Below, piece by piece: positions 2,717-58,735 of a DNA stretch of 64,000 nucleotides. Position numbers and translations under genes: made by a program. Under the pieces are notes generated by a model. That model was not told where the DNA came from. It did not search any database and saw nothing but the letters and a program-made list of their open reading frames with translations. The stretch is from Cystobasidiomycetes sp. EMM_F5. Lineage: Eukaryota. The stretch is taken from contig JBPGPT010000007.1 in NCBI GenBank assembly GCA_051047955.1, forward strand, positions 1 through 64,000. The letters are read 5' to 3'. Numbering within the stretch: the first letter of the stretch is position 1; every line of letters starts with the position of its first letter.

Positions 2717-2854
2717 ATCATCAGTCTGCTTTTGCAGTTGTTTCGGCGTCAAGCTGGCTTGAATAATCTAACCAATGTTGACTTTAAGCCAACTGAGCTC
2801 AGACAGAAAAACGCAGAGCTGCGACGTCTTTATTACTCTCTGATTCATGACATT

Positions 2855-5015: not shown

Positions 5016-5207
5016 CGCAGGGATGTCTGGATTTCCAGCTTGCTTTTCGGGGTAGTCTCAGTACAGTCACTGTCGTTGTACACCACGGACACCATATCCC
5101 CAACAGTTTGTGCCATCTCTTGCCAGCTTCTGGCCAGTCCACCGCCTTTGACGTCGTCTGGCTTGTCTCTTGCCCAACCCACCCAACACCCGAAACCATT
5201 GCCAGCC

Positions 5208-6867: not shown

Positions 6868-7100
6868 GGACGAACGCTTGAAGCCGCGGTAGTGGATATG
6901 CACAATGACGAGTACAATTTGCTCAAAGGCGGTGTTTTGAGCTTGGCGTCTTGCTGAATCGGCGAACACTTGCATGAATCTGAACTGAAGAGTATGCTGC
7001 TTGCCTGAGACGACGAGGAGGACGAGCAGGATACTACCAGAGCCTTGCGGCTGGTTGTTGGCGGAAATTGAGGATATATTGGATTGGAGAATTGGCAAAC

Positions 7101-10100: not shown

Positions 10101-10186
10101 GCTACGCTGCTGGTGGTCCAAATTGGCAGCCGCAGCAACCCCACCCAGCCTTCCAAGGCGGTTCTAGCAATCCATACTATCGGTGA
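7101..10186 (+). CDS. ADAM-family metalloprotease (reprolysin + disintegrin + Cys-rich + TM)
   Basis: Prodomain with cysteine-switch-like HCGHD, MGVAADCTY, spliced zinc motif HEIGHNFGAIHD, Met-turn YIMSP, disintegrin CGNGILEPGEECDPG..CDIAETCTG, TM IPVTVVGGIIVLLLLYGL. Start codon approximate. Confidence 0.9.
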
Positions 10187-10641
10187 AGTGATTAGTGAAA
10201 GACATTGACAATTTGCAGTATCAAATCGTTCTCCAACGGCAAGCTCAAGCAATCCACTACGTCGGCCCAGAACAAGTCCAATTCTCTTCGCTGTCTGGCT
10301 CTCGCAACGGCATCTCCACACAAACGGACACTGTAACATGGCTATTTGACGTATTGATTTCGTTTCAACGCTGTTGTTGTGGAGTGGATGCACTGAATGC
10401 AATCGTTACATCAAGACGGAAGACTCTGTCGTTGCCATGCTCGTTCCCCATTATGATTAATTGTTGCCCATTTCGTTACGACGCCGGCTTGGTTTGTCTG
10501 ACTTACGCCAACTGAGCCTGGCTCAAAATACAACGACGACCAAAGACTGGCCCATTACCTGACTATGAACGAGTAAATGTACCCATTGCACTGAGAAATA
10601 GCTGGACTCTGGCAAGCTCCGCTGCTTCGAACGGCTCAAAC

Positions 10642-24606
<13,965 letters not shown>

Positions 24607-29470: not shown

Positions 29471-30413
29471 TATTTATTGCTCAATCTTTTGATATTTCGA
29501 CGCGGAAACCTGGACTCGACAGCCCAGCCCGCGCAGAGTACGCCCAGCTAGCTCATAGTCGTCGTATTCCTCGTAATCCTCATATTCCTCATAATCCAGC
29601 CTTTTTTGGCCGGTTGTCGCGCTGGAAAGCCCAAGTGCTCGGGTTTCCCTTTTGCCAACCAGCTGCAAGTAACAATAATGAAGAATGGCTGAACAACGAT
29701 GACCACGATGAACGCTGAGATGGTGCTGAAAGATATCTGAAAGCACAGCCAGGCCCAGCTTGGACGGAAACGGCAGTAAACACGGAAAAGATTGGGCAAT
29801 TCGGGCAACAATGAGCGTAAGTGCGGTTCAGCCATGAAACATGCGTCGAGTATCCATATTGTCGCAAACGACGCGCTTCTCGCCGTCCCAAACTCGCCCA
29901 GTCTTGATTGGACCCTTCCACGCCAAATTACACGAAAACTACCCTCAGACGGCGTACAAACCCGTTAATGCCATAATAGACTCTCATCCATACCCTGTCT
30001 ACTCCCGCTGACGAACCATCTGTCCCGTTTTCTTTGCCGACCTCGCGAACCTCGTACTTCCCAAATTACCCGTCACCGACAATCTGCCAACATCTTTGCG
30101 ACATACGCACACGCTCGCATATCAATAACGCGTAAATGTATGTCATCTCGTTGCGTTTCAATGTCTGCAGTACAAATCCAGCTCAAACGGGCAGCACTCG
30201 CACTCAAACAACACCCTATCGACTTCCCCGGCGACAGGGCCAATCAATCTACGCCCCGTACGAGCACGCTCGTCGTCTAAATCAAATCCACACGGCAAGC
30301 TTCACTCTTCCAGCTATGGCGGGCAGAGCAAGTTTGATTCGCTCTTTGGCGGTTCCGCAAAGCCCGGGAGAGCGGGTTCCACGTCTGGCACCGCACAGCC
30401 CCACCATGCCGTC

Positions 30414-32131
30414 ATGACAGACGAGATACTCGACGAGGAGATGGATAGGCTCATCGATGAAGAGGACGCCAGACTAGCCGCCGAAGACAAGGACGATCAG
30501 CTGGGAGCAATAGGTCACGGAAGAAAAGAGATTCTCCGCTGCGAGCGGTGCCATAAAGTCTACCACCATCCGCAAAGTCTCATTAAACGTAGTTCAGCTT
30601 ATTTAGGTTCTTTCTGCTGTTGAGCTGAGATGGCACTGCTGCAGACCGATGGCAACACACGTCGCACTGGAGCTCAGCTTCACAATACGGCCTTTCAAAA
30701 CATCAAACCGTTCAAGCGCTCGAGGCAGCAGTCATTCTTGCCAACGCAGATACAGGCGCGTCCCACTTTCTTCCCGAAGACAAATCGCACTGGCCAGCAG
30801 CCGTTTCTCCGCCCACATCTGGACTGCTGGGTTCAGACCGAATGAACATCGAAGTGCTTCGTCGACGAGCAGCGTTGCAAGCGAGAAGAAAGAGCAATGA
30901 CCCTTCGCCAGGCAGTCAGTCTGCAGTTCCCTACTCGCAGTCTGTGCCGACAGGCCTTCACCCAAGCGGCGCACTCGCTGGCCATCAGCCAATGTCCAAT
31001 GGCAGCAGGCGGAGTCGAAGCAGGGGGAGAGGAAGTCGCAACGGCGCATCGGGCGAACAGGCAATTTCCGTCAGTCTTCGGTCTGTCCATGATGACGAGA
31101 ATGGATTTGAGCTTGATGAAGAGCTGGAAGCCCGCGAGCAAGCCTTGTCTTCCGGCGTCATCGAGATGCAGGAGGAGGAAGACAACGACGCTCTCGACAA
31201 CGATGACGATGACACAGAAGACGAGGACGATAGCCTCGGTGCAGACGTCAGACGAGTGGCTCAGTCATCGAATGGCGGCAGACGCCTTACTGTAAGAGAA
31301 GATAGTTCGATGGATCGCGCCGCTAGTGCTTTGGGCGAAATGCACCTTGCAGCATCGCCATTCAACCCTGTACCCAATAATACTGTTACAGACACCATGA
31401 CCGCTGCGCACAATCTCAGTCCAGGTGGCCGTCACCTAGCTCTACACGATCCTCACACAAGGGAGGTATCACAGGCTGGTATTCCCGGTGTCAAAGGCGA
31501 TCATCCAAGTTTTCCACCTCATATGGCTACCGCCAATACATTACTATCTGTATCCGCACCTGTTCTTGGTTTTTTTGAAGATTCTCATGCGGCCAATCCC
31601 AGTGCTCGCGCCCCGGTCGATGGCGGACTAGTAGTCAGCAGTCCATTATCTGGGCCGCAACTCAACATTCCACATACCGGTTCTGCACTTGCGGGACGCA
31701 ATGAACCTAGTCCTGCGTACTTTCAATTACCGCCCTCGATTGTTGCACCGGCACCCATTCCCGCAATCGCACCCATTAGTCTACGAAGTCCTGTGCTGTC
31801 AGCGCAGCTGTTGGGAGGCAATTCGCCTCGACTTCCATCGAGTCTTGGTCGGAGTGCACTCTCGTATCAGGGTACCAGAGGTTATTCGACCACGCCGCGT
31901 TCAATACCTTTTGGTCAAGCACCTATTGCAGGATCTTATCGCTCCACTTCAGCCAGTCAGTCGATTGGACAGGTCCTTCACGGAGTTTCGCCGTTGCCTC
32001 ATAGCCACCCTGAAAATTTGCGGCAAACGAAGGGCAATGTGCTGCATGAGCATAAGGATGGCGATGAAGATTCTGTCGCAGCTGGCAGCAGCGCCATGGA
32101 CGACGATGATCTGATGGACATGGACTTGTAA
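30414..32131 (+). CDS. Single C2H2 zinc-finger protein with long disordered tail (putative transcription factor); true start may lie upstream
   Basis: After removing intron 30589-30643: CERCHKVYHHPQSLIKHRWQHTSHW..LSKHQTVQALEAAVIL, continuing into ORF 30842-32131. Confidence 0.75.
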
Positions 32132-32555
32132 CACTTGTCACAACAACCAAACGAGCCTTAGTATACGTACGTGAATCAGTTTCAATTGCGTGGCTGGCAG
32201 CCGACCCGTAGCCATAGTAGCAGGCTTTCGAAGAGCTGTACGTCAGTATCACGTTGTCTGACTCTTACTCGGTCTACTTGTTGTGACTACAAAGGATCTG
32301 GCGACATGCTTTAATCCGTCTAAAAACGTTTTTATCAATTTGCGGAGATTACGTCTGGTTAGCGCAAACGATATAATGCAGCAAGTGCAGAGGCAAGGTT
32401 GACTCAGTATTAGCAACGGTGTGTCAGTCTGTAGACAGATGCAACTAGTTAAAGAGTAACGTATGTTCATTACGTGGTATGATTACAACAGCAACCGCTG
32501 CCCGTGCGGCATCAACACCTTATGCAACGCTAACGCCAACTCGGCGATTAGTACA

Positions 32556-34551
32556 CTACGCCTTGTCGGATACATCATCTGGGCTGGGGTTACGAGCATG
32601 CTCAAACAGGTTGTGGTCACCGGAGGGCTTGAGGTACTCTTTGGTAGCACCCGAAGCGTATTGGTCGTGCTCGCGCTGCACTTGAGCCATGACACGCTTG
32701 TGGGCCGTGATTGGCGCCTTGTCGTCGAAGAGAGCATCCATGAATTCCAGCGGGATACCTTTGGTCTCTGGCAGGAGGAATAGAACGTAGAAAATGGCCG
32801 CGACTTGCATGAAGCCGAAGAACAGGTAAACGCCGAATCCGGAGGCACCCATTTGAGCGAACATGGTAGGTGTGGAACGCGAGATGACAAAGTTCCACAG
32901 CCAGTTTGAGGCAGCAGCCGCTGTTGATGATACCAATCGCACAGCGCCTGGGAATGACTCAGAGTTGACGACCCATGGAGTACCGTTCCAGCCGATGGCG
33001 TAGAATGCAGTCCAAATGTAGAAGAATGCGACGGCAGCTTGTCCGGAAGGCGGGAGAGTGGTGGTTGGGTTGGCGGCAGGGTTTGTCTTGCCAAGGATAG
33101 CTCCGATGACCAACATGGCGACGGCACCACCGACTGAACCGACAACGAGGACTGCACGTCGACCATAACGATCTACCCACCAGAAACTGCATGAGTAGGA
33201 TTAGCGCCGGAATTAAAAATCTGTCAATTTGGCAAGACTTACGCCCAAAGTAAAGCACCGACGGATTTGATTACGCCGAATACACCAGTGGTCAAAAGAG
33301 TAGTATTTGTGCCAACAACGCCGATGGTGCGGAAGAAGGTGGGCGAATAGTAGTTGACAGCGTTGATACCGGTACCGTTCTGGAAAATGAAGAGCGACGT
33401 GGTGAGCAATAGACGGCGGGTCAATCTCCACGAGGTGAAGATGGCGCGGACTGGGGCCATGAAGCCAGCACCGACAGCAGCTACATCGTGCTCGACTTGG
33501 ATGGTAACGGCGTTGACTTCCTCAATGAGATAAGGGTGGTCGCCAGGCAGGTTTCTCAGGTAGCAGAGATTCTTGATGGCCTGTTCACGTCGTCCACGCT
33601 GAATGAGCCATCTCGGAGACTCCTTGACGACGATAGGAATGAGAATGGCGAAAAGACCGGATGGGATGAGTTGTACGGCGAACGGTGTGAACCACTGAGT
33701 AAAGCCCATCGGGAGATTGAGGGAGACACCATAATTTATCCAGAAACCGACGATACCGCCAATTTGCCATGCAATTTCGTACATGCCGATGAGCTGACCG
33801 CGGATTTGAGGGGGAGCAATTTCCGAGATGTACAGTGGGGCCATAGAAGACGCTTGACCGATACCGACACCTGCAATAGCACGACCGGCGAAAATAGGAC
33901 CGAGACCACGAGATCCGTTGGCAGCCAGCATGATTGCGCTACCAGCAAAGCAAATGATTGCAGCAATGAGCATGCCATACTTGCGGCCGAGGAAAAAGGC
34001 TATCGGGTACGCAGATAGCGCGCCAAAGAAAGCTCCTACGATGGATAGATGGGTCAGTCTTGATGTAATGGTTGCCCTAACGCACAAAGCCGCTTACCAG
34101 CTTGGTATACCGATACAATGTCTGTACGAAGCGGCGAGTCAGTAAAGGGTCTGGGATCAGCCGGTACTCCACTTGAAACTCACTTGCAGACAGTGTTGTG
34201 AAGTCGGCAGCAGGATACGAGGGAGGATTTAGACTTTAACGCGGAGAAATGGTCAGAAATGTGTGAATTACGTAAAAACCGCCGAAGAACTCACGAGAAT
34301 TCGTTCTTGAAACTTGGAAGGGCAAGGGATGTTCCAAAAAATGCGCTATCGTATCCTGCAACCAGCGAACGTCCTCAGTCAGCATTTCCGGCATTGTGCA
34401 TTTTTGCGGCAATTTGCGGAGAATCCAGCCACTCACCGATCATGATGGCGGCGCTCGCAGCGCAGATGCCCGCAGCGTAGAGACGGCCATTGTAGATCTG
34501 GTCGGGTGCAGAGTCGTGCTTGTCGGCCTTGATGTACTGGAGGATGCCCAT
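32556..34551 (-). CDS. qutD: Quinate permease (MFS sugar-porter family; qutD/qa-y-like)
   Basis: MGILQYIKAD..PDQIYNGRL, spliced MIGYDSAFFGTSLALPSFKNEF, ANIVSVYQAGAFFG, PLYISEIAPPQIRG, FQNGTGINAVNYYSPT, GWNGTPWVVNSE, PETKG; cluster context. Confidence 0.88.
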
Positions 34552-34886
34552 CTTGGGAGCGAGGAAGAAGATTCCTTTTGCAGGAAGATTGAGGGAGGAA
34601 GCTCTTTGAGGATTGCTTTGAGGAGGAAAGAAGAAGAAGAGGATCCCAGACTATTTGATTTCCTGCAAGTCAGCTTTTCTGGAGACAAGAGCCAAGCGGA
34701 GTTGCGTCCGGGCTCCTTCTTTTTCTTTTGCGAATGGGCTGATCTGCTGAGGCGGGACTCCCGAGGGCAGACTGGGGAGCGGATCAGTTCTTCCGGGCTG
34801 CGCTGATCTGTTGGCCCGAGCGAGATGACTGGGCTACCCTTGGCGGTGATGCCTGTCGGAAGTTAAATATCCGGGCCGCGCCCACC

Positions 34887-34896
34887 GCGGATAAAC
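34887..34896 (+). promoter_or_regulatory. Candidate quinate-activator site GCGGATAAAC upstream of the permease
   Basis: An identical 10-mer recurs at 36702-36711; contains a CGG triplet typical of Zn2Cys6 sites. Confidence 0.35.
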
Positions 34897-35176
34897 TGAA
34901 AATACTCACCTGTCATCCAGCGGGGCCAGTCGGGAAGGGAGCCGCTCGCGACGAACGAGGTGCGGGGATGAATGCAAGAGACGTGGAGAATCCATTACAC
35001 CGAGGCTGCGACATGCGGAGACGCTCAATGCGGGTGAGAGACAGACGAGAGACGAGTAGCTTACGTTATCGCTCAGGGCTACTTGAACATCAGAGTATCC
35101 TGCATCATCACCACCGCACACAGCATGCGTTTGTATGTTTAGGCCAACCTCTTACACTGTCTAACGCTCTCCGCAA

Positions 35177-36570
35177 TCAACTCTGTGGAGGAGCAGACCC
35201 GCTAGCCTTGTCCTTCTTGACCTGCTCGCTCACAATCCTCACAGTCTCGGACACGTTCAGATCCTCCTCCTTGCACTGCAACCACAACTTTTGCTGGTCA
35301 ATACCCTGGTAGATCATTGGCTTCTCGCCGGTGATGACGTGCCAGCCCTTTGCAGCGGCAATGTTGGAGATTTCGGTATCTGGGCTTGGGTGGTAGCACT
35401 GAAGGGCAATGCAGCGTCAAGTATCAGTAGGTAGCATTCACACAGAAGCACGTTCGACGCACCATTTCGATGATGCCGCCCTTTTCCTTCTTGTCGAGGA
35501 ATGCCTCAAACGTCGCTCGTGCAGCCTTTTCCTGCGGGGTCGATGGCGGAAAGTCGGGAATGCATGATACACTGTCACACGTAACGACATCAGTTGCGCC
35601 CTTCATCCACCCTCTATCAGCCTTACATGAGTGATGGAGTGGGCAAGCTGGCAGCTTCTTCGGGTGTTTTGATGTGAACACACTCGGGATCGAAATCCAA
35701 CGTGGCATTTTGTTTGAATGAAGCGACCATTGTGCTAACTTCGTCGTCGTCGCGGTTGACGACATAGATAGGCGAGCATTTGAAGTAGACTGCGAGGGCG
35801 TATACAGCAGATCTGGTAGATGATGTGCAGTCATGATGTTTAGTCGGGCATGATCGAAGCACTGCGACAGACTGACACACCTTGATGCACCTCCCCCACC
35901 AACAATCATTCCCGGTCTAGACTTGTCCCCAGGCTTTCCTGTCGCAAAGCCTGCATGAACGAATGCCTCTCGGATACCGGTACAGCTGGAGGAGCGCGTG
36001 CATCAGACAGCGAGCTCAAAGAAGTTTTGCAGTACAATCCATCATACGTACTCTGTATTGTGGCCGAGCAGTTTGCGAGAACCGTCTGGCTGGGGAATCC
36101 AGGCGATGGTGTTGCATGCACCGATAGCTCTTCCTTCTGGGGTCAAATCGTCGCACTCGCTGACGATACGGACTTTGTATGGCCTGTGTGGCAGCAAAAC
36201 AGTGTCAGCTCTGTGCGCAACTAGTCGATTTGCGATTATGCGACCGACATTGTCACCGCCGAACCCGCAAAGTCGGGCTGCTTGGTAGCTTCGAGGATAT
36301 CCTCAAATCGCTGTGTTTCCATCTTTGTGTACGTTCTGCATTACCATAGACGTGCTTTAGTGTGCATGCCCAAGCAATGCCTCCCATCCCTCACCTCGGT
36401 ACTCCGGCTAGCTTGTACATGGTATTGTGGAGAAACGGCGAGTCTGGACGATATCGAGTCGGTCAATCATTCTCAGAGTGCTATACCTTGCACTCACACG
36501 TCCCATGCAGCGGGTAGCCATAGAGATACGTCTTGCCGGGCACGGTCTTGTAGTGCTCGGAAATTGTCAT
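35177..36570 (-). CDS. qutB: Quinate/shikimate 5-dehydrogenase (qutB/qa-3-like), multi-exon
   Basis: Spliced motifs YLYGYPL..SPFLHN, AGSAVTMPYK, IGACNTI, GHNTDCTGI, IVGGGGASRSAVYAL, IYVVNRD, GWHVITGEKPMIYQG; stop at 35177-35179. Confidence 0.9.
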
Positions 36571-36701
36571 TTCGAAGACGGGCGGGAGTGTACGGTGAGC
36601 GAGGATTAATGTAGCCTTGTGCGATGCTTTGTTGACGTTGTTTCGTTGTGAAAAGCTCGAAAGCCAGGCTTTGAAAGAAAATAAAGCGTCACGGCTAGCC
36701 A

Positions 36702-36732
36702 GCGGATAAACCCCCGGTCGCCGGGCTATAAA
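36702..36732 (+). promoter_or_regulatory. Candidate activator site (GCGGATAAAC, CGG-N8-CCG) plus TATAAA in the divergent qutB/qutE promoter
   Basis: GCGGATAAACCCCCG at 36702-36716; TATAAA at 36727-36732, about 77 nt before the qutE ATG. Confidence 0.4.
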
Positions 36733-36808
36733 TGCAGAAATAAGCAACGATTTGGATGGCTTCTGACGGACAACGCACTGATTTACTACTACTGAGCACT
36801 AACACGTC

Positions 36809-37672
36809 ATGTCTTTTACTACCGTGCGGTGGAATAGCTGACCGAAAGAGCGAGCCAGACTGACGCTTTCAAACGATACCAGGATGACCAGGGTGTGACC
36901 AGAGTCAAGAACATCGACCCGGACGACGGTGGAAAGCTCCCGCAGGAGAAGGATACCTTCTTACTGCTGTCCGGACCAAACCAGTGGGCTGAAAACGGGT
37001 CTAGCCGTTCATCCGCTCGCTGACGATGAATCACAGCAACCTATTCGGCCACAGAGATCCCAAGCACTATGGAACGACTACAATGGCTGAGATTGAGCAG
37101 CGCGTAACAGAACTCGGAAAAGAGCTGGGCGTAAAGGTGTAAGGGAGCTTCGGATTGAACGGTGTCGACGTCATCTAATATCCTCCGACTTTATACAGCG
37201 TCTGCGCACAAACCAACCACGAGGGCGTCTTCATTGACCTCATCCACTACGCTCGTCGCTACGGCGGAGTAGTCATGAAGTAGGCGTACACTTCAACAAT
37301 GGGTTCTCTAGCTGACAACGTTGACTTTTTCAGCCCCGGTGCTTTCTGCCACGATTCGTGAGGCCGATGACTAGTCACGGATAACAGAAAACACGCTGAC
37401 TCTGCACTATCTCAGATACGCGGTCCGTGATGCCATCGGTGGAGTCGACGTTCCCGTCTTCGAGATTCACATTTCCAACATTGAAGCACGCGAAGAATGG
37501 CGCGTGTCCAAAACGGCAGCGGTATGCTCGAGCGGAGTCCTCATGGGAGCTGGTGTATTCGGCTACGAGGTGCGAAAGAGATGGCTTCACAGTCGAACCA
37601 TGACTGACACCCGGACGCGCGTAGCTCGCTCTCCGTGCTGCAGTCCACAAAGCCAAGCAGCAGAAAGCGTGA
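36809..37672 (+). CDS. qutE: Catabolic type II 3-dehydroquinate dehydratase (qutE/qa-2-like), 7 exons; absent from the ORF track
   Basis: Spliced: LLLSGPNHNLFGHRDPKHYGTTT..QTNHEGVFIDLIH..MNPGAFCHDSYAVRDAI..VFEIHISNIEAREEWR..GAGVFGYELALRAA. Confidence 0.9.
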
Positions 37673-37816
37673 GTAAGTCTCCTTGTAGACCATCGTGTAG
37701 CTCTAGACGCATAGCACATTGCAATCTCCAGCTGCGACTACATTGTCCCGTCTGCTCAGGATTGCCGATACTTTCCGCCATTGCCATTGATATCTTGCTC
37801 CAACCTGCACCATACA

Positions 37817-39351
37817 ATGCACGACTACGCCGGAGTGGATCTTTTGCAGGCTCATGACTTTTGCGTCTCCATCGTGCTGCGAGCTGGGAGCTACCTCCGG
37901 GCGCAGGCTGCTGCAAGATCAGGCCTCACGGACAGCACGGCCGCCGAGCTGACGGCTACCGTAAAGATGTCGTCTGTGGATCTCGTAACGGAAGCTGACA
38001 TGGAAGTCAGTCTTAAGAGAGAATATGATTCCCAGCAGAGCTCCGGCGGTCCTGACTGTGCTTTGGGTTGTTCATCCAGTGCGAACGGATGATATCAGAG
38101 GCTATAGCTGAGAAATACCCCGACCACAAGTACGAGCAAGAGGCCTAGGAAGACATCTGTTATACTAATGCATCCGTGTGACTAGGATCATCGGCGAGGA
38201 AAGCTATTCTGCTGGCCAGGAGAAGCGTTTCCTTTTGGACGATGTACGTATTCTACGATCTGTTTGTGAAATGTCGCTTAATGTTGACACATGCGTTGTG
38301 TTAGGCTCCTACGTGGATAGTCGACCCTCTCGAGTAAGCCTGAGAAGCCACGTTCGAATTTGTTACAACATCCGACTGATTATACTTTCGCACCTCAGCG
38401 GCACAGTCAATTACCTGCATTTATTTCCGCAATTCTGCATATCAGTCGCACTCGTCATAAAGTGAGTATTATGTCCGATTCCAGCCTGTGCTAGCTAACG
38501 TTATATACAGTAAAATACCCGTTGTCGGCGGGATATATGCGCCCTTTGCATCTGGAGTCTCTAAGCATCCGCTTGACTCGCAAAACGGCACACTGTACTC
38601 CGCTGCGCACGGTCTAGGCTCCTTCCTCACACCTGTCGACCCGACAAGCTTTCCTAGCCTGACGCGGGCATCTCCCCGCCAATCTAGTTCCTGCTCGCCC
38701 ACACCTTACTCCGCTTCATTGCCGCTGCTTAAGCCAGTCGCACCATTCAGTGAAGAAGCACCTAAAGGATGCTTATTCGCTGCGGAATGGGGCAAAGACC
38801 GGAAAGATAAACCTAACGGTAATCTAACGAAAAAGGTAAATTCGATGTGGAACATGGCGTGCGAGATCGGAGGACGGCAAGGGAAGGGTGGTAAGGCGCT
38901 ACTAGCCCTGTTTTGGTGCTCTACAGCCCTGACATTGCGATTTAGGGATGGTCCACGGAGTCCGGTCAATGGGGTCGGCCGCGCTCGACATGGCATACGT
39001 TGCAACAGGCGCAGTCGATATCTTCTGGGAAGCAGGGTGTTGGGAGTGGGATATTTGGTATTTATGCGTTTCTGCGTCGTTCTGACGGTCGTAGCATGCT
39101 CACATTTTATTCTGAAAAGTGCGGGGTCCTGTATTTTGCAAGAAGCCGGCGGATTCGTATATTCAGCCCACCCACCTCTGGAAGACAGTGCAGACAAGCC
39201 TCTACCTGGTGCAGATCTAGGCAGTCGTCTCTATCTTGCCATCAGACCTTGTTCTGGGACGCCTGAAGAAACTCCGCGGCAGATGCAGGACCGCGTCGCA
39301 CGGGAAGTATGGAAGCGAGTGGAAGCGATGGACTACCAGAGGCCTACGTGA
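37817..39351 (+). CDS. qutG: Inositol monophosphatase-family protein (qutG/qa-x-like)
   Basis: KMSSVDLVTEADMEV, IIGEES, spliced TWIVDPLDGTVNYLH, GMVHGVRSMGSAALDMAYVATGAVDIFWEAGCWEWD; lies inside the quinate cluster. Confidence 0.87.
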
Positions 39352-39601
39352 TGCTTTGGAGGCGAAGAGCGCGCAAGTTGCTGCTGCTTGAGCCGTCTCC
39401 ACTCGAAATACCGAAACTGTCCGCTCTCCGGAAGAAAGATATTCGGCGGGCCGAGAGTTGGTTCGGGGCAATTCAAACGCGCAAAGAGAGTCGCAGCGTC
39501 GACGTTGTATGGATAGCATACATGCCAGCAATGACGATGGAGAGCGTTAAATAGGTTGAAAGAACTTTGGCATTCCCGTTGCCGCGGTGGGCCCATCAAA
39601 G

Positions 39602-41917
39602 ATGGCCATCGAGGACCCGCGCAATGGGAACGATAACGCGGGCGCGTCGATACTGCTCATTGGATTCAGAGGCGTAGGAAAGAGCACGCTCGCTCTCATC
39701 GTCGCAACGTATCTCGGCAGACCCTTCATCGACTGCGACAGAGCCCTGTCTAAGCACGCCGGATGTACCCCAAACGAGTACATCGACAGACACTCCTGGG
39801 AAGGCTTTCGGTGCGTAGAAGGTATCCGGATAGTGTCCAAGAGCTAATGTATCGTGCTCTTTGGGCCGGCAGCGACCTCGAGACTGAAATCCTGCGAAAG
39901 ATCCTCGAACAATGCTCCCAAGGCTTCGTTATCGCCTGCGGGGGTGGTGTGGTCGAGCGAGAAGAGAACCGCAACATGCTCAAAGAGTATGGCAGACGCG
40001 GTGGACCCGTTATACACCTCACCCGCGAAAAAGAAAACGTCATTAGCTACCTTATCAACGAAAAGACCCGCCCGCAGTGGGGAGAAGAGATTCGGTCAGG
40101 TGAGTCGCTGTGCATGCTCTCGCATCGACAGCGGACTGACTCTATCGCTTCCCCTGCCAGTCTGGAGCAAGCGATTCCCTCTGTACGAAGAATGCTGTAC
40201 ACATACATACTACTCCCTCACCGCCAAGCGAGACGTGCACGAACCGTCCCTGGTCCTCAAGGATGTTGAGCGAGACTTTACTCGTTTTGTGCGCCGTGTC
40301 TTGAGCTCAACACCCGAACCCTTGCCAGACAACCGTCGGCGTTCGTACGTTATCTCGCTCGCAAATTTGGATCCCAAGACGTTGACCCGCAAACTGCTGG
40401 AAAATGCGACGCATGGGGTAGACGCCATCGAATTACGCGTTGACACTCTCAAGGCTAAAACCGCCCTTGGATCGCCATTCAACTCCCCCTTTGGCACTCC
40501 CAATCTTAATCCAGGATTCCACGATGTCAGCTATGTAGCCTTTGCAGTCGCACAGATTCGCAATCTCTCGCCTCTGCCCATCATCTACACCGTCAGGACC
40601 ATCCGACAAAACGGCAGCTATGTCCTTGATGAATCGTCTCGACAATCTTACATCACGCTGCTAATCTCGGCAATCAAGATGGGTGTAGAATACATCGACC
40701 TGGAAATAGATCTAGGCCCTGAACTCATTACGGAAATAATGCAACATCGGTCACACACGACTCGGGTGATCCTTTCACACGTCGACTATTCTCACAGGCT
40801 CCAGTGGCAACAGGCAGAGGTCCTCCAGCTGTACGAACACGCAGTCAGTCTTGGCGCCGATATCGTAAAGCTGTCTCTGTACGCAGCGACGCCAGCTGAC
40901 AATCAAAAGCTAGCCGATTTCATACACCATGTTGAGCGGAGTGGGGGGGACGATGAGTCATCTCCGAGAGTACCTGTTATTGCCCTGAATACAGGGAAAG
41001 CGGGAGAAGCCTCCGCTCGGTTCAATCATCTCTTTACTCCGGTATCTCACCCATCTTTAAGGAGTCTAAACTCGCTGGGTATCCTGCATTTCCCAGCTTT
41101 GCAGAGATCGCTGCTGAACAGTGGAGCGGAGGCTTTGAAGTACGTGGCCATCGCTCGCAATGGGAGTGGCCGCATGCATCGGAGACAAGTATGGCTTCGG
41201 GCAGTTGATATGTTGGGCCTTCCCGTGGAAATCACAGACGAGGACGACGCTGTCGACCGCGAACAGTTATCAGCAGCATTGCTAGATGCGAAGGTTCACG
41301 ACAAACTGGACTCGATCGGCCTTTCTTCTCCCTCCGCGATATGGACTGGACATATCGATACGGCCTTTAGGGATCCTCATACTAATACCCTTACCTATCA
41401 CAACATCCGCTCCGTGGCCATGGCGGCCTTCATTCAGACACGGCTTGCGCCGATTAATGCAATCACTGAAGTCACTACGGCAATACTGATTGGTGCCAAA
41501 GATGCATACGGAAAAGAAACTGCATTCGCCTTGCTGGAATCAGGCGTGCGACATGTCGTTTGCGTGGATAGCGATACATCAATGCCGGAGGATGGCCGGA
41601 TTGTTCACCTAACAACGCCCGAACAGCTCTCAAGTAGACAGTACCCAACTCTGGTCCTCACGTTCACTGATCCTACAAAGACTGTGATACCTGTGACTTC
41701 GTTACTCTCGTCTCCAACTGGCGGAACAATTTTGACTTTAGGGGATGCTGCCTCAAGCGTAGGCTGGAAAGAGTGCCTTCAAAGCAATGGTCTGAGTCAT
41801 GCATGGGTGCATTCGAATCATCACGATATTGAGATGGCCACTATCAGAGAGCAATTCCAGCTCATTACTGGATACCGGCTACCTGAAGCCGCATTGAAGG
41901 ACACCGTGATAGATTGA
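39602..41917 (+). CDS. qutR: AROM-derived quinate repressor (shikimate-kinase-like + type I DHQase-like + degenerate shikimate-DH-like), ~730 aa, 3 exons
   Basis: ASILLIGFRGVGKSTLA, VIACGGGVVE, GVDAIELRVD, PIIYTVRT, EYIDLE, GADIVKL, FTPVSHPSL; no DHQ-synthase or EPSPS domains. Exons 39602-39810, 39873-40099, 40161-41917. Confidence 0.8.
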
Positions 41918-42012
41918 TGGGTGGATGGATTGGCTAAACAGGGAAAATGGCAGCGTAGCGGGATTGCGGGAAGTCAAGGGGACCGCCGACTAGTGGTGTT
42001 GTTGTACTTGTG

Positions 42013-45000
42013 TCAATTTGTCCTCCATAGATCTCCATCTCCCTTCGTCCATCTGTCCAGCATACCGGTAAAGCCTGAAAGCTCGTTCGGGGAAGAAGCG
42101 CGACTGAATCGGGGCATGTCAATAGAGCCAAGTGCTGCGATAACGTCTGTTTGCGCCCAGCTTGCTGCATCAAAAGCCTTCTGATTATCCAATTTTCCAT
42201 TCTCAAAGAGGCTACTCAGTGCCTGGTGCGGCAGAGAATAACTTTCAGGCAACCCAATACTCTGGGCAGATGGCTGCGCTACTGTTGTGAAGTGGCCAAT
42301 AGCTTGACCCGCCTGACTGCGAGGATGGTCATGGGCAGACTGAGCAGAAACCGGCGGTAGTACACCATTCGTGTAGTGGTCCAGCGATGCCCAATCCATC
42401 TGGAGCGCAGATGAAGTTGAAAACAGGTCGTCCGGCAGGCTGCTCGCATATGTCATGCTTGCAGCCGAAGTGAAAGGAACAACAGAAGATTGAGCGGCAT
42501 GGCCGTTGATGGCGGTTCCGTGCTTGCCAGGGCTGCTCCTCAGACTCATGCAATGCTGGACCCGCTGAGAGGGCAGCGAAGCGAGCAGCTTCTCCATCAT
42601 GTTGGGAAAGATGTGCTGCAGTTGAAGCATTGCAGTAATGTCGGAAGGTTCTTCCATGACAAGATCCGAACTCAGCGTTGCTATCGTGAAACAGAGCAGC
42701 GATGTCGCTATAGTCGATCGGTAGAAGGTGTGGACACGCCTTCGAGCCTCCAAGAACCGTTGAGCAGTACGTATGTCTTCTCGTACAGCGTTCACTGACA
42801 AATCACCAATACTGATTCTGCATAGAGACAGCTCTTTCAGTTTCCACGTCACCTTCTGTGGTGAAACAGACGTACAGCTCTCTCTGGATGACAAGGCGCC
42901 AGTGCAAGTGAGAGAGGTGGACATCGACCCGATGTTGTGGCTGTGCACCGATTGATTCGTCTTCTGGCGTAAGCTCTGGTAGTTGCGCTCTCAGAACTTC
43001 CAGATCGTCCCAGCATCCCCTGAGCGAGTCGACTTCTGCTCGCGTACGCTCGACGGCATTCGCGATGGTCAAGATCTTTTGTGCAATCTTTGCAAGCGAC
43101 ACGGACTGATTGAAAATGGAGTATATGCGTGAGGGTACAGGAGGTCGGTGCTGTGCCAAAGAAGCCACGGACGGAGTAGGCTGCGAAGTGTTGTACATGT
43201 TTTCGAGATCGTCTGGCATTTCGCGTTTCCAGAAATCCCATTCGTCGTATCCGCTCGAAGGCAAATCGAGGACCGCAGTAATACCAGGACACAGTGGCCA
43301 TCGTCCAAGCTGAGAAGCTAGTGCAGTGTCTAGGACGACTATAGAATACCACGTCAGCAGGCGGGTGGTCTGTTCGCCTTCAACATTGGTAGTGCTTGTT
43401 GGCGGTACATGCAAACCAAGGTGGAGAGCTAGCCCTATCGTTTGAGCTACGGGGATGCGTTGAGAGACACAAGCAGTAAGCTAAGGCGATGCACGGTCCA
43501 GTGTGACGGCACTCACCGAGTCCTACCCACGCCAATGTAAGTTGACCTTCACCCCAATCTGCCAAGCTGAGCAGGAGCATAGCTTGCACGGTATGCAAGG
43601 ATGAATTGTGCAATTCTTCGAGTATGCGCGACCGAGCATGTTGACGCAGTTTGCTGGCCTGAGCGTGCAGGTCGACTATGGGTGAAGGGGCCATATAAGG
43701 CGTTGCGATTGCAAAAATTGCATATAGTAACGCCCATGGAAGTGTAACATCCTTGGCAATGTGCGGATTGCACGACCACTGCATGATATCGAGCCGAGAG
43801 CACATGGGCAAGTATGGGTGAACAATGTTGAGGTAGGCTTCGAAGAGTTTGTTGCGCTGCAAGTCAGACGGAAGGTCCGGCAGATCCAGAGCATGTAGTG
43901 CAGCGTCTCTCGATACAGCATGGAGCACGGGTGGAGTCTTGCCTAGATCGACAAAGCCTGATGTTGCTCCAAAAATGCGAGCATTGCGGCCACTTTTACC
44001 CGGTTCCCAGATTATTCGGTAGGGCAACCTTGAACTGCTGTTTGCAGATGGCGAGTCAAGATCGCTATTGTATGTAGCAAGTGGATCGGCCAGGAAAGAG
44101 ATGTCGCCCATCGATCGACTCTTGTTGTGCATTGGAAGGCCTTGAGTGTGGTTCCGGCTAAAGCCGTTGAGAGGGGCATGAAGCGAAGTTGATGGCAGCT
44201 GGATCGTGTAGGAAGAGGTGGAAGAGGGGCCAGCAGTGCTTAGCATCTGCAGAGCTGTGGCAGGCGTGAAGGGAGAAGGAGGTGTTTGCTCGCTCGACCC
44301 GGTCATCTGATCCAGTGTGAGGGCGAGTGGAGGCTGTTGCGAGGCATTGAGATGGCTAAGAACTGGTATACTGTGACCTGCAAAGAGATTACTGCTGTTG
44401 TCGGCTGTGCTGTGCGGTATGAGCCAGGATGTCGATGCTGATGACCCCGCGTGCTGCCGTTCGAGCTCGTCTTTCGGCATGGGCGGAGGGGATATATCGC
44501 CTCCGTTCTCGCCGTCTCCGTCATTCTGGTCTTCGTCAAAGTATCTCCCCACGGCGGAAGCTCGAAAGATGGAGTGCTTTACGGTCGCAGAGGAATGGCT
44601 GTTGGCAGAGTCTTCGAGCAACGCGTCGAGCGAGGGGGGAAGATGGGGCTGGAGCAGTCCGGGAACTGCACTTGGGTCATACTTTTGAATCCCGAGCAGC
44701 ATCTCGCTGATCCCTTCCAGACCTGGCAGGACTCGGTACAGGTCGTGGAGATGGGTCGACAGCCGCTGCACTTTGGCCTGTACGTTCTTTCCGGGAACGG
44801 GACCTCTTCTTCGCGGGACAGTCCAGCCGCACTCTGAGCCCTTTGCTGCGCAAGGTGCGCAAACTGGCTCTTTGCCGTCGCATTTGACCCTTCGTTTCCG
44901 GCAGGTCTGGTTGGAACACCAAGGGAGGTCAGCGTCAATATCAGTGTCAGTGTCAGTGTCAGCATCAGTCTTCGTCGTCGTCCATTGCTACAATCTCACA

Positions 45001-45053
45001 TTGCAAGACTGGGTCACCCTCCGCTTCTTGCTGGCCCGGTCATCGTCGGCCAT
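42013..45053 (-). CDS. Zn(II)2Cys6 transcription factor with fungal TF middle-homology region; putative quinate activator (qutA/qa-1F role)
   Basis: Spliced KKRRVTQSCN|TCRKRRVKCDGKEPVCAPCAAKGSECGW; YLNIVHPYLP, SSLHTVQAMLLLS, TWYSIVVLDTALASQLGR. Activator role inferred from position only. Confidence 0.85.
44928..44970 (-). repeat. Tandem CTGACA-type hexamers inside intron 1 of the Zn2Cys6 gene
   Basis: Plus strand tcagtgtcagtgtcagtgtcagcatcagtc, plus gtcagc at 44928. Confidence 0.6.
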
Positions 45054-45538
45054 TATTGCGACCGATATTGCTGCCTTTTCGAATATAAAAGGCAGCTTTT
45101 ACTCCATCACTGCATGGTCATTGTCATCGCTGCTGCATAGTCAGGCTCATTTGCACTTGGTCTCCATTTCAAGTTGGCTATTTACAAAGCTGGCCGGAAA
45201 AGAAAGAAGCAAGAAAGAAGACTATTCATTTCCGAATAACCTATTGAAAAGCTTTGACCAGGTCATATCGCAGGTAGATATCCTCGTCAAAGTTGCTGAA
45301 GCCATCGTCCAAGCTGCGGTATGCTCCTCCAGACTCCTCGGATATCCGTCAGCAAGATCATCCGCCGTCGCGAAAACATTTAGGGCTATGGAAAAATAGG
45401 TCAAAGATGGGAGAGATTATTGGAGATGCAAAGGAATGTGAGGAGCTTCGAGCACTGCGACTGGGACAGAGTCAGCTCTACTGACAGTGCAAACACAGAT
45501 CCAGTCTCCGTAGAAGCCGCCGAGCTCGACGCACCATC

Positions 45539-46739
45539 ATGCCCAGGTCATCCAGATATGCTATCGCAACCCTATCCCTCGGGAGCTGCGAGATTCACTC
45601 GCTTGAAAGCAAGCTCGTTGCCGCCAGCAACGCAGGCTTTCGTCGCCTAGAGCTATTCGTCGCAGATTTCGAAAAGTACGTCAGCCTCTACCTCCAGGAG
45701 AAGGGCCTGTCGTCATCTGTCGAGTCGCGACTGTCAGCAACGAGGAACCTGCGCGCAATAGCAAAGAACCTCGACATTACCTTCAACTGCTTGCAACCGT
45801 TGCGCGACGTGGAAGGAAACGTCGACCCGGTAAAGCGAGCTAAAAAGGTTGAAGAAGTCAGGCAGTACTTTGCGATATGCAACATTCTCGACATCGACCT
45901 CATCCTATGCTGCTCCAGCAACGATCCAGAGTCGGATGGAAGGGTGTCAGTCATCTCGCGAGACCTCGTAGAATACGCAGACATGGCCAAGCAATGGCAG
46001 GCGCAGAACGGAGGGGCCTTGATTCGCATTGGGTATGAAGGGTGAGTCCACGAATGTCAACATACGCTTGGGTGCTGTCGTCTAATACCCTCAAACAAGA
46101 TTGTCGTGGGGAACGCACGTCAACACCTGGTCGCAAGCATGGGCATGCGTAAACCACGAACCTCGTCCAAATCTGGGCCTCATTGTAGACTCGTTCAACT
46201 CGCTTGGGAGAGAATATGCCGATCCTTATAATGCTCCCACTGGCCTGCAGCGTTCCCCCGCCGCATCCATTGTGTTCCTCCGCCAACACCTCAATCAGCT
46301 CATCTCGACAGTACCCGGCAACAAAATCTTCCTCTTCCAGGTTGCCGATGCATGCATGCCACCCGCTCACCTATCACGCCCACCACCGCCCGAGTCTGGT
46401 ACTCCGCGACTGCTGCCCTGGTCGAGGAACTGCAGACTGTTTCCACTTGAAGTTGAGCGAGGCGCATACCTCCCTGTCACGGCGTATGCGAGGGCAGTAT
46501 TGGCGACGGGGTACCAAGGAGATCTCAGTCTAGAAGTCTTCAACGCTTCCCTGCACGAGGCAAACAAAGACGTCCCTATGCAACACGCAACTCGCGCATA
46601 CTCTGCGTTGGAACGGCTGGACCGTGCGCTCGATGAGCAAGTCGACGAATCCAAGACGGAGCGGCCTGACTCGCCGCGCAGAGTACGAGGGAGTCCGAGA
46701 GTAGCTTTGGTTCCGCTGCAGCCAGCGTCTGCGATGTGA
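45539..46739 (+). CDS. qutC: 3-dehydroshikimate dehydratase (qutC/qa-4-like; xylose-isomerase/AP-endonuclease-2 TIM barrel)
   Basis: YAIATLSLG, AASNAGFRRLELF, CLQPLRDVEG, spliced IGYEGLSWGTHVNTW, NLGLIVDSFN, KIFLFQVADA, WSRNCRLFPLE, SLEVFN; one intron. Confidence 0.9.
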
Positions 46740-46982
46740 ATGAGCGAGTCTCCACAATTTTCACGTTTTTAGCAGCATTATCAGTACATCCCATGTAGCC
46801 ATTCCAACGCCGAGCAAAGCACAGCCTGCGAATGTACGTTAGTAGATGTTGTAGGATCAGCGCAAGCATGTTAGAATGGCATAACAGCTTCCAGGTTATA
46901 TATCGAAGTCAGGTTCAGCTGTTTCGACGACGACGACGGGTTTATGCGCGCTGGCTCGCTCCAACGCACCGCGCGGACATTC

Positions 46983-48805
<1,823 letters not shown>

Positions 48806-56719: not shown

Positions 56720-58735
56720 ATGGTCTCTGCACCCGTCACCAACGGCCACAGTGCCAATGGACACGCCAACGGACATAGCAACGGACATGCCAATGGCCAT
56801 GCCGCAAATGCAAATGGTCACAGCAACGGTCACGCTGCGCCATCGGTAGACCCTACCGCGGCAGTACGCCCTGCCGAGCCCATCAAGGTACACTCGGACA
56901 AGGTCACGTACACTGACGAGCACATCACGTCAAAGTACGAGTACACGACCACCTCGGTCAAGCTCAACGATGGCAGATACGAAGTCACTCCAAACACCTC
57001 TACCTACGAGTTCCGCACTGAGCGCAAGGTGCCCAAGCTCGGTGTCATGTTGGTCGGATGGGGCGGAAATAATGGCTCGACCCTGACTGCCACCATTCTG
57101 GCAAACAAGCACAACATTACCTGGAACACCAAGGATGGTCTCCACACGCCAAACTACATTGGATCGCTCCTTCGAGCTTCCACTGTCCGTCTTGGTGTCA
57201 ATGCCGAGACGGGTGCAGATGTCAATGTACCCTTTTCGGACCTCGTTCCGATGGTCCACCCCAACGACATTGTTCTCGGAGGATGGGATATTTCATCCTT
57301 TACCCTCGACCGTGCCATGTCGCGCGCTCAGGTACTCGAGTACGATCTGCAGCGCCAGCTTGCCCCGTACATGTCTGAGCTCAAGCCGCTCCCGTCCATC
57401 TACTATCCGAGCTGGATCAACGCCAACCAGACTGCCCGAGCAGACAATCTCCTTCCCAACGGAGACCAGAGCAACGATAAGCAAGCTCATCTCGATGCCA
57501 TTCGTGGACACATTCGCGACTTTAAGACCGATAATGGTCTCGACAAGGTGATTGTCCTGTGGACTGCCAATACCGAGCGATACGCCGATATCGTCCCAGG
57601 TGTCAATGACACTGCCGAGAATATCCTCAAGTCGATCGAGAGTTCCGAAGAGGAGATTGCACCTTCGACCCTGTTTGCTGTTGCGTCCATTCTCGAGGGC
57701 GTGCCGTACATTAATGGCGCACCGCAAAACACCTTTGTACCGGGTGTCATTGAGCTCGCAGAGCAGCACCGTGCATTCATTGCAGGTGACGATTTCCGTA
57801 CTGGCCAGACTCGTCTCAAGGCATGCCTCGCAGAGATGCTCATCAATGCTGGTCTCAAGCCGCTTGCCGTCGTCAGCTACAACCATCTCGGCAACAACGA
57901 TGGCGTGAGTGGGAGAGTGTAGCACGATGAGCGTATAGCGCGCTGATGTTTATACGTGTGAAGAAAAACTTGAGCGGACAAGCACAGTTCCGATCCAAGG
58001 AGATTTCCAAGGCTTCGGTCATGTGGGTCATTACGCATGAAACCATGTCAGAATATGCTGATAAGTCTGTCTACGTAATTAGCGACGACATGGTGCACAA
58101 CAACCACCTCCTGTACCCACGCGGCAAGGATGGTCAGCCGCAGGGTCAGCCCGACCACACGGTCGTCATCAAGTATGTCCCTGCCGTAGGTGACGACAAG
58201 AGAGCGTGAGTGCTGCGAAAGAGTCCATTACAGCAGCGCGATAGATGCTGATGTTGTGATATGAACAGTCTCGACGAGTACTATTCGGAGATTGTCAGTT
58301 TACATGTTTAGTAGGGTCGAGAAGGATGCTGACATGCTACTTCTTTTCAGATGATGGGCGGTAAGAGCACCATTAGCATCTTCAATGTCTGCGAGGACTC
58401 TTTGCTCGCTTCACCAATCATTCTTGATCTGGTTCTGCTTGCCGAGTTTCTTGGCCGAGTCACCTACCGCGATGCTTCGTCGGGAGAAGACTTCCAGGCC
58501 ATGTACTCCATCCTGTCGCTTCTCAGTCTGATGCTCAAGGTGGGCCGGTGCAGAGCTGAACAGAATCGAGAACGTGTCTGACTGTGTTTTATGACAGGCC
58601 CCACTCGTCAAGCCAGGCACTCCAGTTGTCAATGGCTGGTCCCGCCAACGCTCTGCTCTGGAAAACTTCCTCCGAGCCTGCATCGGCATGGCTCCTGAGC
58701 ACTCGATGGAGCTCGACACCAAGATGGTGTGGTAG
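56720..58735 (+). CDS. INO1: myo-inositol-1-phosphate synthase
   Basis: [55 protein letters not shown]; multi-exon 3' half. Confidence 0.95.
56741..56833 (+). repeat. Coding Asn-Gly-His tandem repeat at the INO1 N-terminus
   Basis: [31 protein letters not shown] (7 NGH units). Confidence 0.85.

Follow-up and report, generated by a model that had tools for sequence, protein, structure and literature searches.

A seven-gene quinate/shikimate-type catabolic cluster on a Pucciniomycotina contig, with a repressor-like protein of a separate AROM-derived clade

The stretch analysed here (hereafter the window) comprises 64,000 nucleotides, positions 1 to 64,000 of contig JBPGPT010000007.1 from the Cystobasidiomycetes sp. 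EMM_F5 assembly GCA_051047955.1, and harbours at positions 32556..46739 seven adjacent genes of the families that make up the quinate/shikimate catabolic clusters of ascomycetes, qa in Neurospora crassa and qut in Aspergillus. A first-pass annotation, made from the sequence letters, had claimed seven such neighbours between unrelated genes, and the Pfam and NCBIfam scans together with our gene models confirmed all seven families, their adjacency, their order and their strands, the outer borders of the models coinciding with those drawn in that annotation. The genes, and the two divergent intergenic regions among them, are as follows.

32556..34551, minus strand: major facilitator superfamily (MFS) permease of the sugar-porter family, qa-y/QutD-like by position; 6 exons, 557 amino acids (aa); Sugar_tr, TIGR00879.
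35177..36570, minus strand: shikimate/quinate dehydrogenase-family enzyme, qa-3/QutB-like; 8 exons, 320 aa.
36571..36808, no strand: divergent intergenic region of the dehydrogenase and dehydroquinase genes in the gene models, a presumed shared promoter; 238 bp.
36809..37672, plus strand: type II 3-dehydroquinase, qa-2/QutE-like; 7 exons, 174 aa; DHquinase_II, aroQ.
37817..39351, plus strand: inositol-monophosphatase-like (IMPase-like) protein, qa-x/QutG-like; 8 exons, 356 aa; Inositol_P.
39602..41917, plus strand: AROM-derived repressor-like protein; 3 exons, 730 aa; SKI, DHquinase_I.
41934..45053, minus strand: Zn2Cys6 transcription factor, presumed activator; 5 exons, 940 aa; Zn_clus, Fungal_trans.
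45054..45538, no strand: divergent intergenic region of the Zn2Cys6 factor and dehydratase genes in the gene models, a presumed shared promoter; 485 bp.
45539..46739, plus strand: 3-dehydroshikimate dehydratase, qa-4/QutC-like; 3 exons, 362 aa; AP_endonuc_2, QuiC.

The Pfam scan was run on stop-to-stop open reading frame (ORF) pieces, 11 of 26 of which had a match, and an NCBIfam scan was run in addition. The gene models are predictions drawn from three sources, namely a splice-aware dynamic programme trained on the long ORFs of the window, the joining of ORF pieces by frame, and three-frame reading. Too many introns were called when the intron penalty of this programme was low, and small 5' exons went missing when it was high; the final models mix its output with frame-read joins. 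All seven models are open from ATG to stop and together contain 33 GT..AG introns of 49-128 nt, that is, 3.2 introns per kb of coding sequence. Several exon borders are model-based, notably those at the start of the repressor-like gene, at the 128-nt intron in the IMPase-like gene and at the last exon of the Zn2Cys6 factor. Gaps of 16-625 bp separate the cluster genes, leaving no space for a further gene between members. The flanks are occupied by unrelated genes encoding a HECT E3 ligase, a RhoGAP/LIM protein, EB1, ClpB/HSP104, porphobilinogen deaminase, inositol-3-phosphate synthase and a DEAD-box helicase, all of which are housekeeping genes.

Pfam, NCBIfam or solved-structure matches back the assignment of six of the genes, the seventh falling just under the cut-off, and motifs of catalytic type can be recognised in the models of the dehydrogenase, the dehydroquinase and the IMPase-like protein. 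The permease matched Sugar_tr on two pieces (2e-64 and 6.2e-37, profile positions 48-305 and 306-452) and the sugar porter model TIGR00879 on both (7.8e-59 and 2.7e-34), its intron at 33187-33242 coming from frame-joining. In the dehydrogenase gene the Shikimate_dh_N match (5.5e-05) lay under the Pfam cut-off and a 192-aa piece found no match in the solved-structure search; the NCBIfam aroE and Shik-DH-AROM models matched two exons, and the spliced model aligned with the dehydrogenase parts of AROM-like proteins at 1.2e-44. This model carries TMPYK, GHNTD and GGGGASR, with the K and NTD motifs readable. The dehydroquinase is identified by DHquinase_II (4.3e-13 and 6.2e-06), by aroQ (1.3e-15) and by a piece matching 40 solved type II dehydroquinases, the best at 2e-12; a 24-nt microexon of this gene (37334-37357) encodes NPGAFCHD, part of a conserved substrate-binding loop.

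Both pieces of the dehydratase matched AP_endonuc_2 as well as the NCBIfam model of the 3-dehydroshikimate dehydratase QuiC (1.2e-09 and 7.8e-19, at consecutive profile positions), and one piece matched the solved chain 5hmq, which we take to be Pseudomonas putida QuiC1, at 7.1e-14. Residues 5-327 of the spliced model align with full-length relatives. The IMPase-like gene is the weakest family call of the seven. Its model carries WIVDPLDGTVNY, a motif of the DPLDGT type, and a second, neighbouring piece matched Inositol_P at 9.3e-04 at consecutive profile positions. The closest Atlas cluster of the piece bears the name 'Inositol-1-monophosphatase family' (score 0.94, a lead only), and the gene is 37% identical over 198 aa to a similar gene in a metagenomic cluster described below (L058). 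Neither the solved-structure search with a 296-aa piece nor the NCBIfam search gave a match at E<=0.01 for this protein.

Two genes of the cluster encode putative regulators. The repressor-like ORF matched SKI (9.9e-11) and DHquinase_I (3.2e-41) in Pfam, and its best solved relatives are the C-terminal part of the pentafunctional AROM protein (5.5e-28); its parts are shikimate kinase-like, type I dehydroquinase-like and, in degenerate form, shikimate dehydrogenase-like. The NCBIfam scan also gave aroD in the cluster. A pentafunctional AROM enzyme itself (five domains, ~1,500-1,600 aa) was considered and rejected, the model of 730 aa comprising the last three domains only, with catalytic residues changed. 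The second gene is recognised as a Zn2Cys6 factor by Zn_clus (6e-07) and by Fungal_trans on two pieces. Its six-cysteine zinc cluster is interrupted by an intron (44907-44999), the N-terminus and this first intron having been read from frames, and its last exon (41934-41989) is uncertain, another possible stop lying at 42013. The two genes stand tail-to-tail, with 16 bp between the predicted stops or ~95 bp if the other stop is used, and on its opposite side the factor gene shares the 485-bp divergent region with the dehydratase gene.

The position of the host was assessed with the inositol-3-phosphate synthase ORF (56720-57919), which had 7,609 relatives. Among the best 120 of these, the organism names shown all read as basidiomycete, one named row being without organism and the taxonomy having been looked up for Mixia only. 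Within the same 120, the best named matches were Microbotryomycetes sp. JL221 (69%) and Mixia osmundae (68%), and the best overall was an unnamed sequence (72%). In a 50-row tree that combined the window with 37 named and a further 12 unnamed sequences picked from the best 120, the window groups with seven unnamed sequences (support 97) next to Mixia (96), on the side that holds all 20 Pucciniomycotina rows, with Agaricomycotina (99) and Ustilaginomycotina (92) apart. By this placement, which comes from one gene yet agrees with the Pucciniomycotina relatives of the repressor-like protein, the host is a Pucciniomycotina basidiomycete; the basidiomycete host proposed in the first-pass annotation is thus borne out by the synthase matches and by the position next to Mixia. 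With regard to habitat, one phyllosphere metagenome run (X1; share 0.06) contained 151-nt contigs lying on the cluster when positions 32000-47500 were compared. Four of its ten records reached >=99% identity and three of the eight listed were without any difference, from which we infer that the organism, or a very close strain, occurs on plant surfaces, as seen in this single study.

Composition and codon use do not set the cluster apart from its flanks. GC content per 2-kb bin ranges between 0.493 and 0.561 across the window and between 0.518 and 0.540 in the cluster bins. Compared with ten flanking ORFs, the cluster has a coding GC of 0.542 vs 0.536 and a third-position GC (GC3) of 0.580 vs 0.536 (0.47-0.64 among the flanking ORFs), and the codon frequencies of the two sets correlate at r 0.84. 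For the dehydratase, a tree was built from 35 rows and 234 columns, the 34 relatives (119-380 aa) being those that share 5-residue words with a 217-aa piece, a biased sample with several long branches from which basidiomycete relatives may be missing. One clade (99) unites the window with 16 unnamed sequences at 59-74% identity. These relatives are about as close as the unnamed relatives of the synthase, which suggests that a group of related fungi also carries the dehydratase gene.

A metagenome scan with the repressor alignment yielded 80 loci, which were then searched by tblastn with 17 ORF pieces of the window. A repressor-like match was all that 35 of these loci showed; in 41 it was accompanied by a dehydrogenase match ~1.1 kb downstream on the same strand, and we read these as mostly AROM-type genes. 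The remaining four look like quinate clusters, and they are distant from the window, with 29-32% identity to its repressor-like protein and few introns. They form two near-identical pairs, L058/L060 (positions 1-11050), with a permease, an IMPase-like gene, a dehydratase and a repressor-like gene, and L053/L054 (4397-10882), with a permease, a dehydratase and a repressor-like gene. No close syntenic relative of the cluster was found among the 80 loci.

The affinities of the repressor-like protein were examined more widely. An exhaustive HMMER search with its 689-aa ORF returned 556 relatives, of which 19 had E values of 1e-30 or lower, where a word-based search had returned three; the five closest are 35-42% identical and all unnamed. 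The tree set retained 98 of 153 proteins, the criterion being a length of 470 residues or more counted from the position that aligns with query residue 100, and the other 55 were dropped; the set contains no Neurospora or A. nidulans reference sequence, and no named GaaX or TanX occurred among the matches. With FastTree, the protein of the window fell in a clade of 17 rows (100) whose six named members are all Pucciniomycotina: Leucosporidium creatinivorum, Meredithblackwellia eburnea, Phenoliferia psychrophenolica, Rhodotorula araucariae and two near-identical rows of Atractiella rhizophila. An ascomycete-type clade of 16 rows includes Aspergillus varians (P0267) and Recurvomyces mirabilis (P0241). 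'Quinate repressor protein' is the UniRef name of a member of the 90% cluster of P0241, and the identity of this clade as quinate repressors rests on that one name in a set free of Neurospora and A. nidulans references. Another group gathers full-length AROM proteins and fragments, including the AROM of Kwoniella, a small group contains an Agaricales protein of Collybiopsis, and three further clades include Acaromyces, a second Meredithblackwellia protein, Tilletia and Aspergillus pseudoustus. The groups were unchanged in an IQ-TREE analysis of 46 chosen representatives under a site-mixture model, in which the clade of the window again obtained 100 and the ascomycete-type clade joined the Agaricales group and AROM at 93. 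The split separating the two repressor clades had a support of 97 in a set of 27 rows analysed under LG+G4. By these trees, the clade of the window is separate from the one that contains the ascomycete 'Quinate repressor protein'.

The two clades also differ in the motifs they have kept. The residues treated as catalytic are those known for the three enzymes, namely shikimate kinase, dehydroquinase of type I and shikimate dehydrogenase. The counts below include the window in its own clade, and the kinase GGG was counted on covering rows only.

Kinase GGG: 11/11 in AROM, 9/9 covering rows in the clade of the window, 0/15 covering rows in the ascomycete-type clade.
Dehydrogenase NTD: 11/11 in AROM, 0/16 in the clade of the window, 15/16 in the ascomycete-type clade.
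Dehydrogenase GAGG nucleotide loop: 11/11 in AROM, 0/16 in the clade of the window, 15/16 in the ascomycete-type clade.
Dehydroquinase histidine: 11/11 in AROM, 3/16 in the clade of the window, 6/16 in the ascomycete-type clade.
Dehydroquinase Schiff-base lysine: 11/11 in AROM, 9/16 in the clade of the window (arginine in 7), 1/16 in the ascomycete-type clade (arginine in 14).

In the protein of the window itself, Walker A, D-x-D and GGG are intact in the kinase-like part, the dehydroquinase part has a valine at the position of the catalytic histidine and keeps the lysine, and the dehydrogenase part reads NIR for NTD and GAKDAYG at the disrupted nucleotide loop. The decay has run in opposite directions, the clade of the window having kept the kinase motifs and lost those of the dehydrogenase, and the ascomycete-type clade the reverse. 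Both lineages look non-catalytic at the dehydroquinase step and have decayed in different domains. From the retention of the kinase-like motifs and the loss of the dehydrogenase motifs, we guess that the shikimate-kinase-like part may be the ligand sensor.

Proteins of the same AROM-derived architecture, shikimate kinase, dehydroquinase and shikimate dehydrogenase in succession (SK-DHQase-SDH), have already been deposited for many basidiomycetes. Further clades of this kind (P0203, P0170, P0184, P0143) occur in basidiomycetes of all three subphyla, each with its own pattern of motif loss, and one of them has SWRD at the histidine motif with the lysine kept. This suggests that several unstudied families of AROM-derived regulators exist outside Ascomycota.

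Taken as a whole, these data point to a working cluster of the qa/qut kind, converting quinate and shikimate to protocatechuate, long resident in the chromosome of a Pucciniomycotina fungus that occurs in the phyllosphere and equipped with a repressor of its own branch, a reading to which we would give a probability of roughly 0.8. In such a cluster, the MFS permease would import quinate, to judge from its family, and the dehydrogenase, probably of the NAD type, would oxidise quinate to 3-dehydroquinate and shikimate to 3-dehydroshikimate. The type II dehydroquinase would yield 3-dehydroshikimate from 3-dehydroquinate, and the TIM-barrel dehydratase would then form protocatechuate, which would enter a beta-ketoadipate route encoded elsewhere. 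The IMPase-like protein would have the role of qa-x/QutG, itself of no known function. By analogy with the pairs QutA/QutR, GaaR/GaaX and TanR/TanX, the Zn2Cys6 factor would turn the genes on, and the probably non-catalytic AROM-like protein would restrain it until a pathway compound binds. Substrate, co-regulation and the binding of repressor to activator are the parts of this scheme that we infer, co-regulation being what the clustering and the known logic of such modules would lead one to expect.

Several observations weigh against this reading. The substrate of the permease cannot be read from the Sugar_tr family, and the IMPase-like gene reached 25.8 bits (9.2e-06) against an Inositol_P cut-off of 27. 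The repressor-like protein lies outside the named ascomycete quinate-repressor clade, so that only architecture and position support the regulatory analogy. For the site of the Neurospora activator Qa-1F, the 16-bp symmetric GGRTAARYRYTTATCC, 32556-46739 contained no match with up to three mismatches, and the whole window contained three where 4.47 were expected; nor was any motif significantly common to the five intergenic regions of the cluster. In the dehydratase tree, a clade that includes Aspergillus nanangensis and A. saccharolyticus is the sister group (95) of the clade of the window, and the Atractiella protein falls outside, a topology that does not fit simple vertical descent as far as the 34 word-sharing relatives indicate. 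Finally, Atractiella has its dehydratase gene on a contig of 87,187 bp and its repressor-like genes on contigs of 140,263 and 15,033 bp, which indicates that clustering is not general in the subphylum.

The search for regulatory elements also left some observations of a more local kind. Of 33,280 three-base dyads, the best in the five intergenic regions was CGC-N3-CCG (p 5e-05, uncorrected). The 8-mers common to at least three of these regions do not extend into a common motif, and no palindrome of 4 or 5 bases was present in three of them. The 9-mer CGCTCTCCG (read on the minus strand as CGGAGAGCG) occurs three times, at 35165, 37627 and 39422, in or beside intergenic regions of the cluster; its 8-base core is found six times in the window. 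These occurrences are not significant after correction for word number, and the 9-mer may be a candidate site.

As to origin, three routes are each possible, namely ancient inheritance with deep divergence, old transfer of some of the genes, and an independent origin of the clustering around a repressor lineage of basidiomycetes. We lean towards a cluster long resident in this lineage with a lineage-specific regulator, because its composition is like that of the flanks and the named relatives in the repressor clade are all Pucciniomycotina. A bolder version, which is doubtful enough to be offered as a suggestion, would have an old Pucciniomycotina lineage of AROM-derived repressors recruited to a quinate cluster independently of the QutR/Qa-1S lineage of ascomycetes, or split from that lineage before the phyla diverged, and sensing through a substrate-competent, perhaps catalytic kinase-like domain in place of the dehydrogenase-like one. 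If true, the switch of an activator and an enzyme-derived repressor for quinate would have arisen, or been rebuilt, at least twice in fungi.

Strictly vertical descent from one cluster already present when Ascomycota and Basidiomycota still shared an ancestor, the regulators being strict orthologues of Qa-1S/QutR and Qa-1F/QutA, seems unlikely to us. It would account for the identical seven protein families standing side by side and for three neighbour pairs shared with the Neurospora order (dehydroquinase/IMPase-like, dehydrogenase/permease and repressor/activator), and the CLOCI paper (PMC11381361) gives quinic acid catabolism one of the four highest distribution scores (TMD) of its reference clusters. 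The repressor phylogeny tells against it, the clade of the window standing apart from the ascomycete one, which groups with AROM. Joining the clade of the window with the ascomycete-type and Agaricales groups cost 27.7 log-likelihood units (p-AU 0.0102 in the approximately unbiased, AU, test), a value obtained from 27 rows, for a group named after the tree had been seen and under LG+G4, a model more prone to long-branch effects. The opposite decay of motifs in the two clades and the lack of a Neurospora-type site in the cluster add to this, as does the arrangement of the regulators, which are tail-to-tail here and share a potential bidirectional promoter in A. niger according to PMC10512348. 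The repressor-like protein therefore cannot be filed as an orthologue of QutR or Qa-1S, and is better described as AROM-derived and repressor-like by architecture and position. Accordingly, the match to the full qa complement proposed in the first-pass annotation stands for the seven functions at the level of protein families; it does not extend to orthology or layout, given the repressor clade, the motif loss, the tail-to-tail regulators and the lack of such a site.

An old horizontal transfer from an ascomycete, of the whole cluster or of a part that includes at least the dehydratase, with introns and host-like composition gained later, would explain the sister relationship of the dehydratase clade to the one containing Aspergillus. 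The full-length dehydratase model is 42% identical to A. nanangensis vs 41% to Atractiella, the nearest large Atlas clusters of the dehydratase and IMPase-like pieces are dominated by Ascomycota (leads only), and in a survey of 556 genomes, which recovered 31 described quinate-dehydrogenase clusters, the vast majority of all clusters lay in Pezizomycotina (10.1101/184242). Such a transfer is nonetheless improbable in view of the exclusively Pucciniomycotina named relatives of the repressor, of a composition and codon use like those of the flanks, and of the 33 short introns, and the dehydratase sample that favours it is the biased one described above.

Still less probable is that the Zn2Cys6/AROM-like pair serves a different substrate and just happens to lie among quinate enzyme genes, or that the whole cluster serves another hydroaromatic compound. 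Precedent comes from A. niger, for which PMC10512348 gives four AROM-derived repressor modules, one each for quinate, galacturonate and tannate/gallate and a fourth whose substrate is unknown, and both the position of the repressor outside the named quinate-repressor clade and the lack of a shared promoter motif would suit this alternative. The pair is, however, embedded in the cluster, with the IMPase-like gene on one side and, on the other, the dehydratase gene, with which the factor shares its divergent region, and the shikimate-kinase-type substrate motifs of the repressor would fit a ligand from the shikimate pathway. An assembly chimera or contaminant joining ascomycete DNA to a basidiomycete contig, raised because the cluster is best known from ascomycetes and for which no support was found, is barely credible given the even GC content, the flank-like codon use and intron style, the basidiomycete relatives of the repressor, the recording of the window proteins on one contig of 137,599 bp and the independent run holding pieces at 99-100% identity.

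Growth on quinate is common among basidiomycetous yeasts, and the assimilation of quinic acid has long been used in their taxonomy. The literature searched, which did not extend to one directly relevant paper and to the supplementary tables of the survey, described no intact qa/qut cluster or regulator pair for Basidiomycota, so that within this scope the first-pass remark, of being aware of no characterised intact example in the lineage, is supported; genome papers on smuts and Rhodotorula mention only 'quinate permease' genes (PMC4466345, PMC9027234), and the functional work found deals with ascomycetes only. What appears to be new, on the basis of the alignments and trees, is a repressor from a distinct, Pucciniomycotina-wide branch derived from AROM with a reversed decay of its domains. 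The qa/qut clusters are a textbook example both of clustered genes in eukaryotes and of an activator restrained by an enzyme-derived repressor, and the QF/QS expression system used in animals derives from the qa cluster. An intact, intron-rich cluster in an early-branching basidiomycete group offers a natural comparison for the age of the cluster, for whether the switch was invented once or more often and for the domain that senses the ligand. It also points to genes that may underlie quinate assimilation in basidiomycetous yeasts, and synthetic biology might gain from it a second, orthogonal pair of repressor and activator.

Other features of the window lie to the left of the cluster. ORFs at 7268-10183 with a Disintegrin domain (7.7e-18) probably belong to an ADAM-type metalloprotease gene, uncommon in fungi. 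A very large gene for a HECT E3 ligase of the TOM1/HUWE1 type occupies 11131-24121, its DUF908, DUF913, UBA, UBM and HECT domains extending over ~13 kb in few exons, compared with the many small exons of the enzyme genes in the cluster. Directly left of the cluster, at 30129-32128, there are two ORFs without a Pfam family, one of which has a C2H2-like CxxC...HxxxH stretch.

Compared with known systems, the cluster resembles most closely the qa cluster of Neurospora crassa, with the same seven families in ~14 kb vs 17 kb in Neurospora, and with enzymes of 320, 174 and 362 aa vs 321, 173 and 359. It differs in the phylum of the host, in its 33 introns, in the gene order, in having no match to the Qa-1F site, and in a 730-aa repressor that belongs to a clade other than the ascomycete type, with kinase motifs kept and dehydrogenase motifs lost. 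The logic of an activator and an enzyme-derived repressor, described for Neurospora in PMC12610400 and PMC3114802, would be the same here.

The qut clusters of A. nidulans and A. niger have the same functions, and according to PMC10512348 QutR shows homology to the last three domains of AROM, with the activator and repressor genes adjacent, as in the window, where they are tail-to-tail instead of sharing a potential bidirectional promoter as qutA and qutR do; no eighth gene resembling qutH was seen in the cluster of the window. The clade of Aspergillus varians P0267 and the Recurvomyces 'Quinate repressor protein' is likewise distinct from that of the window. The other modules of A. niger, GaaR/GaaX, TanR/TanX and NRRL3_07604/07605, have the same architecture of a Zn2Cys6 activator beside a presumably non-catalytic AROM-like repressor (PMC10512348). 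GaaR/GaaX and TanR/TanX govern genes for galacturonate or for tannate/gallate and, unlike the pair of the window, are not embedded among quinate enzyme genes.

The Pucciniomycotina SK-DHQase-SDH proteins ORY56199.1 (Leucosporidium creatinivorum), KAM0753959.1 (Meredithblackwellia eburnea), KAL8279413.1 (Phenoliferia psychrophenolica), GAA6053999.1 (Rhodotorula araucariae) and KAH8927754.1 (Atractiella rhizophila), which were compared by protein only, share the clade (100) and the motif pattern of the repressor of the window at 25-29% identity over the alignment. The likeness to the bacterial qui/qsu clusters lies in the dehydratase, which matches chain 5hmq and the N-terminal TIM-barrel part of NCBIfam QuiC; by contrast, the enzyme of the window is without an HPPD-like C-terminal domain, and it is encoded by a gene of eukaryotic structure accompanied by regulators of the fungal type.

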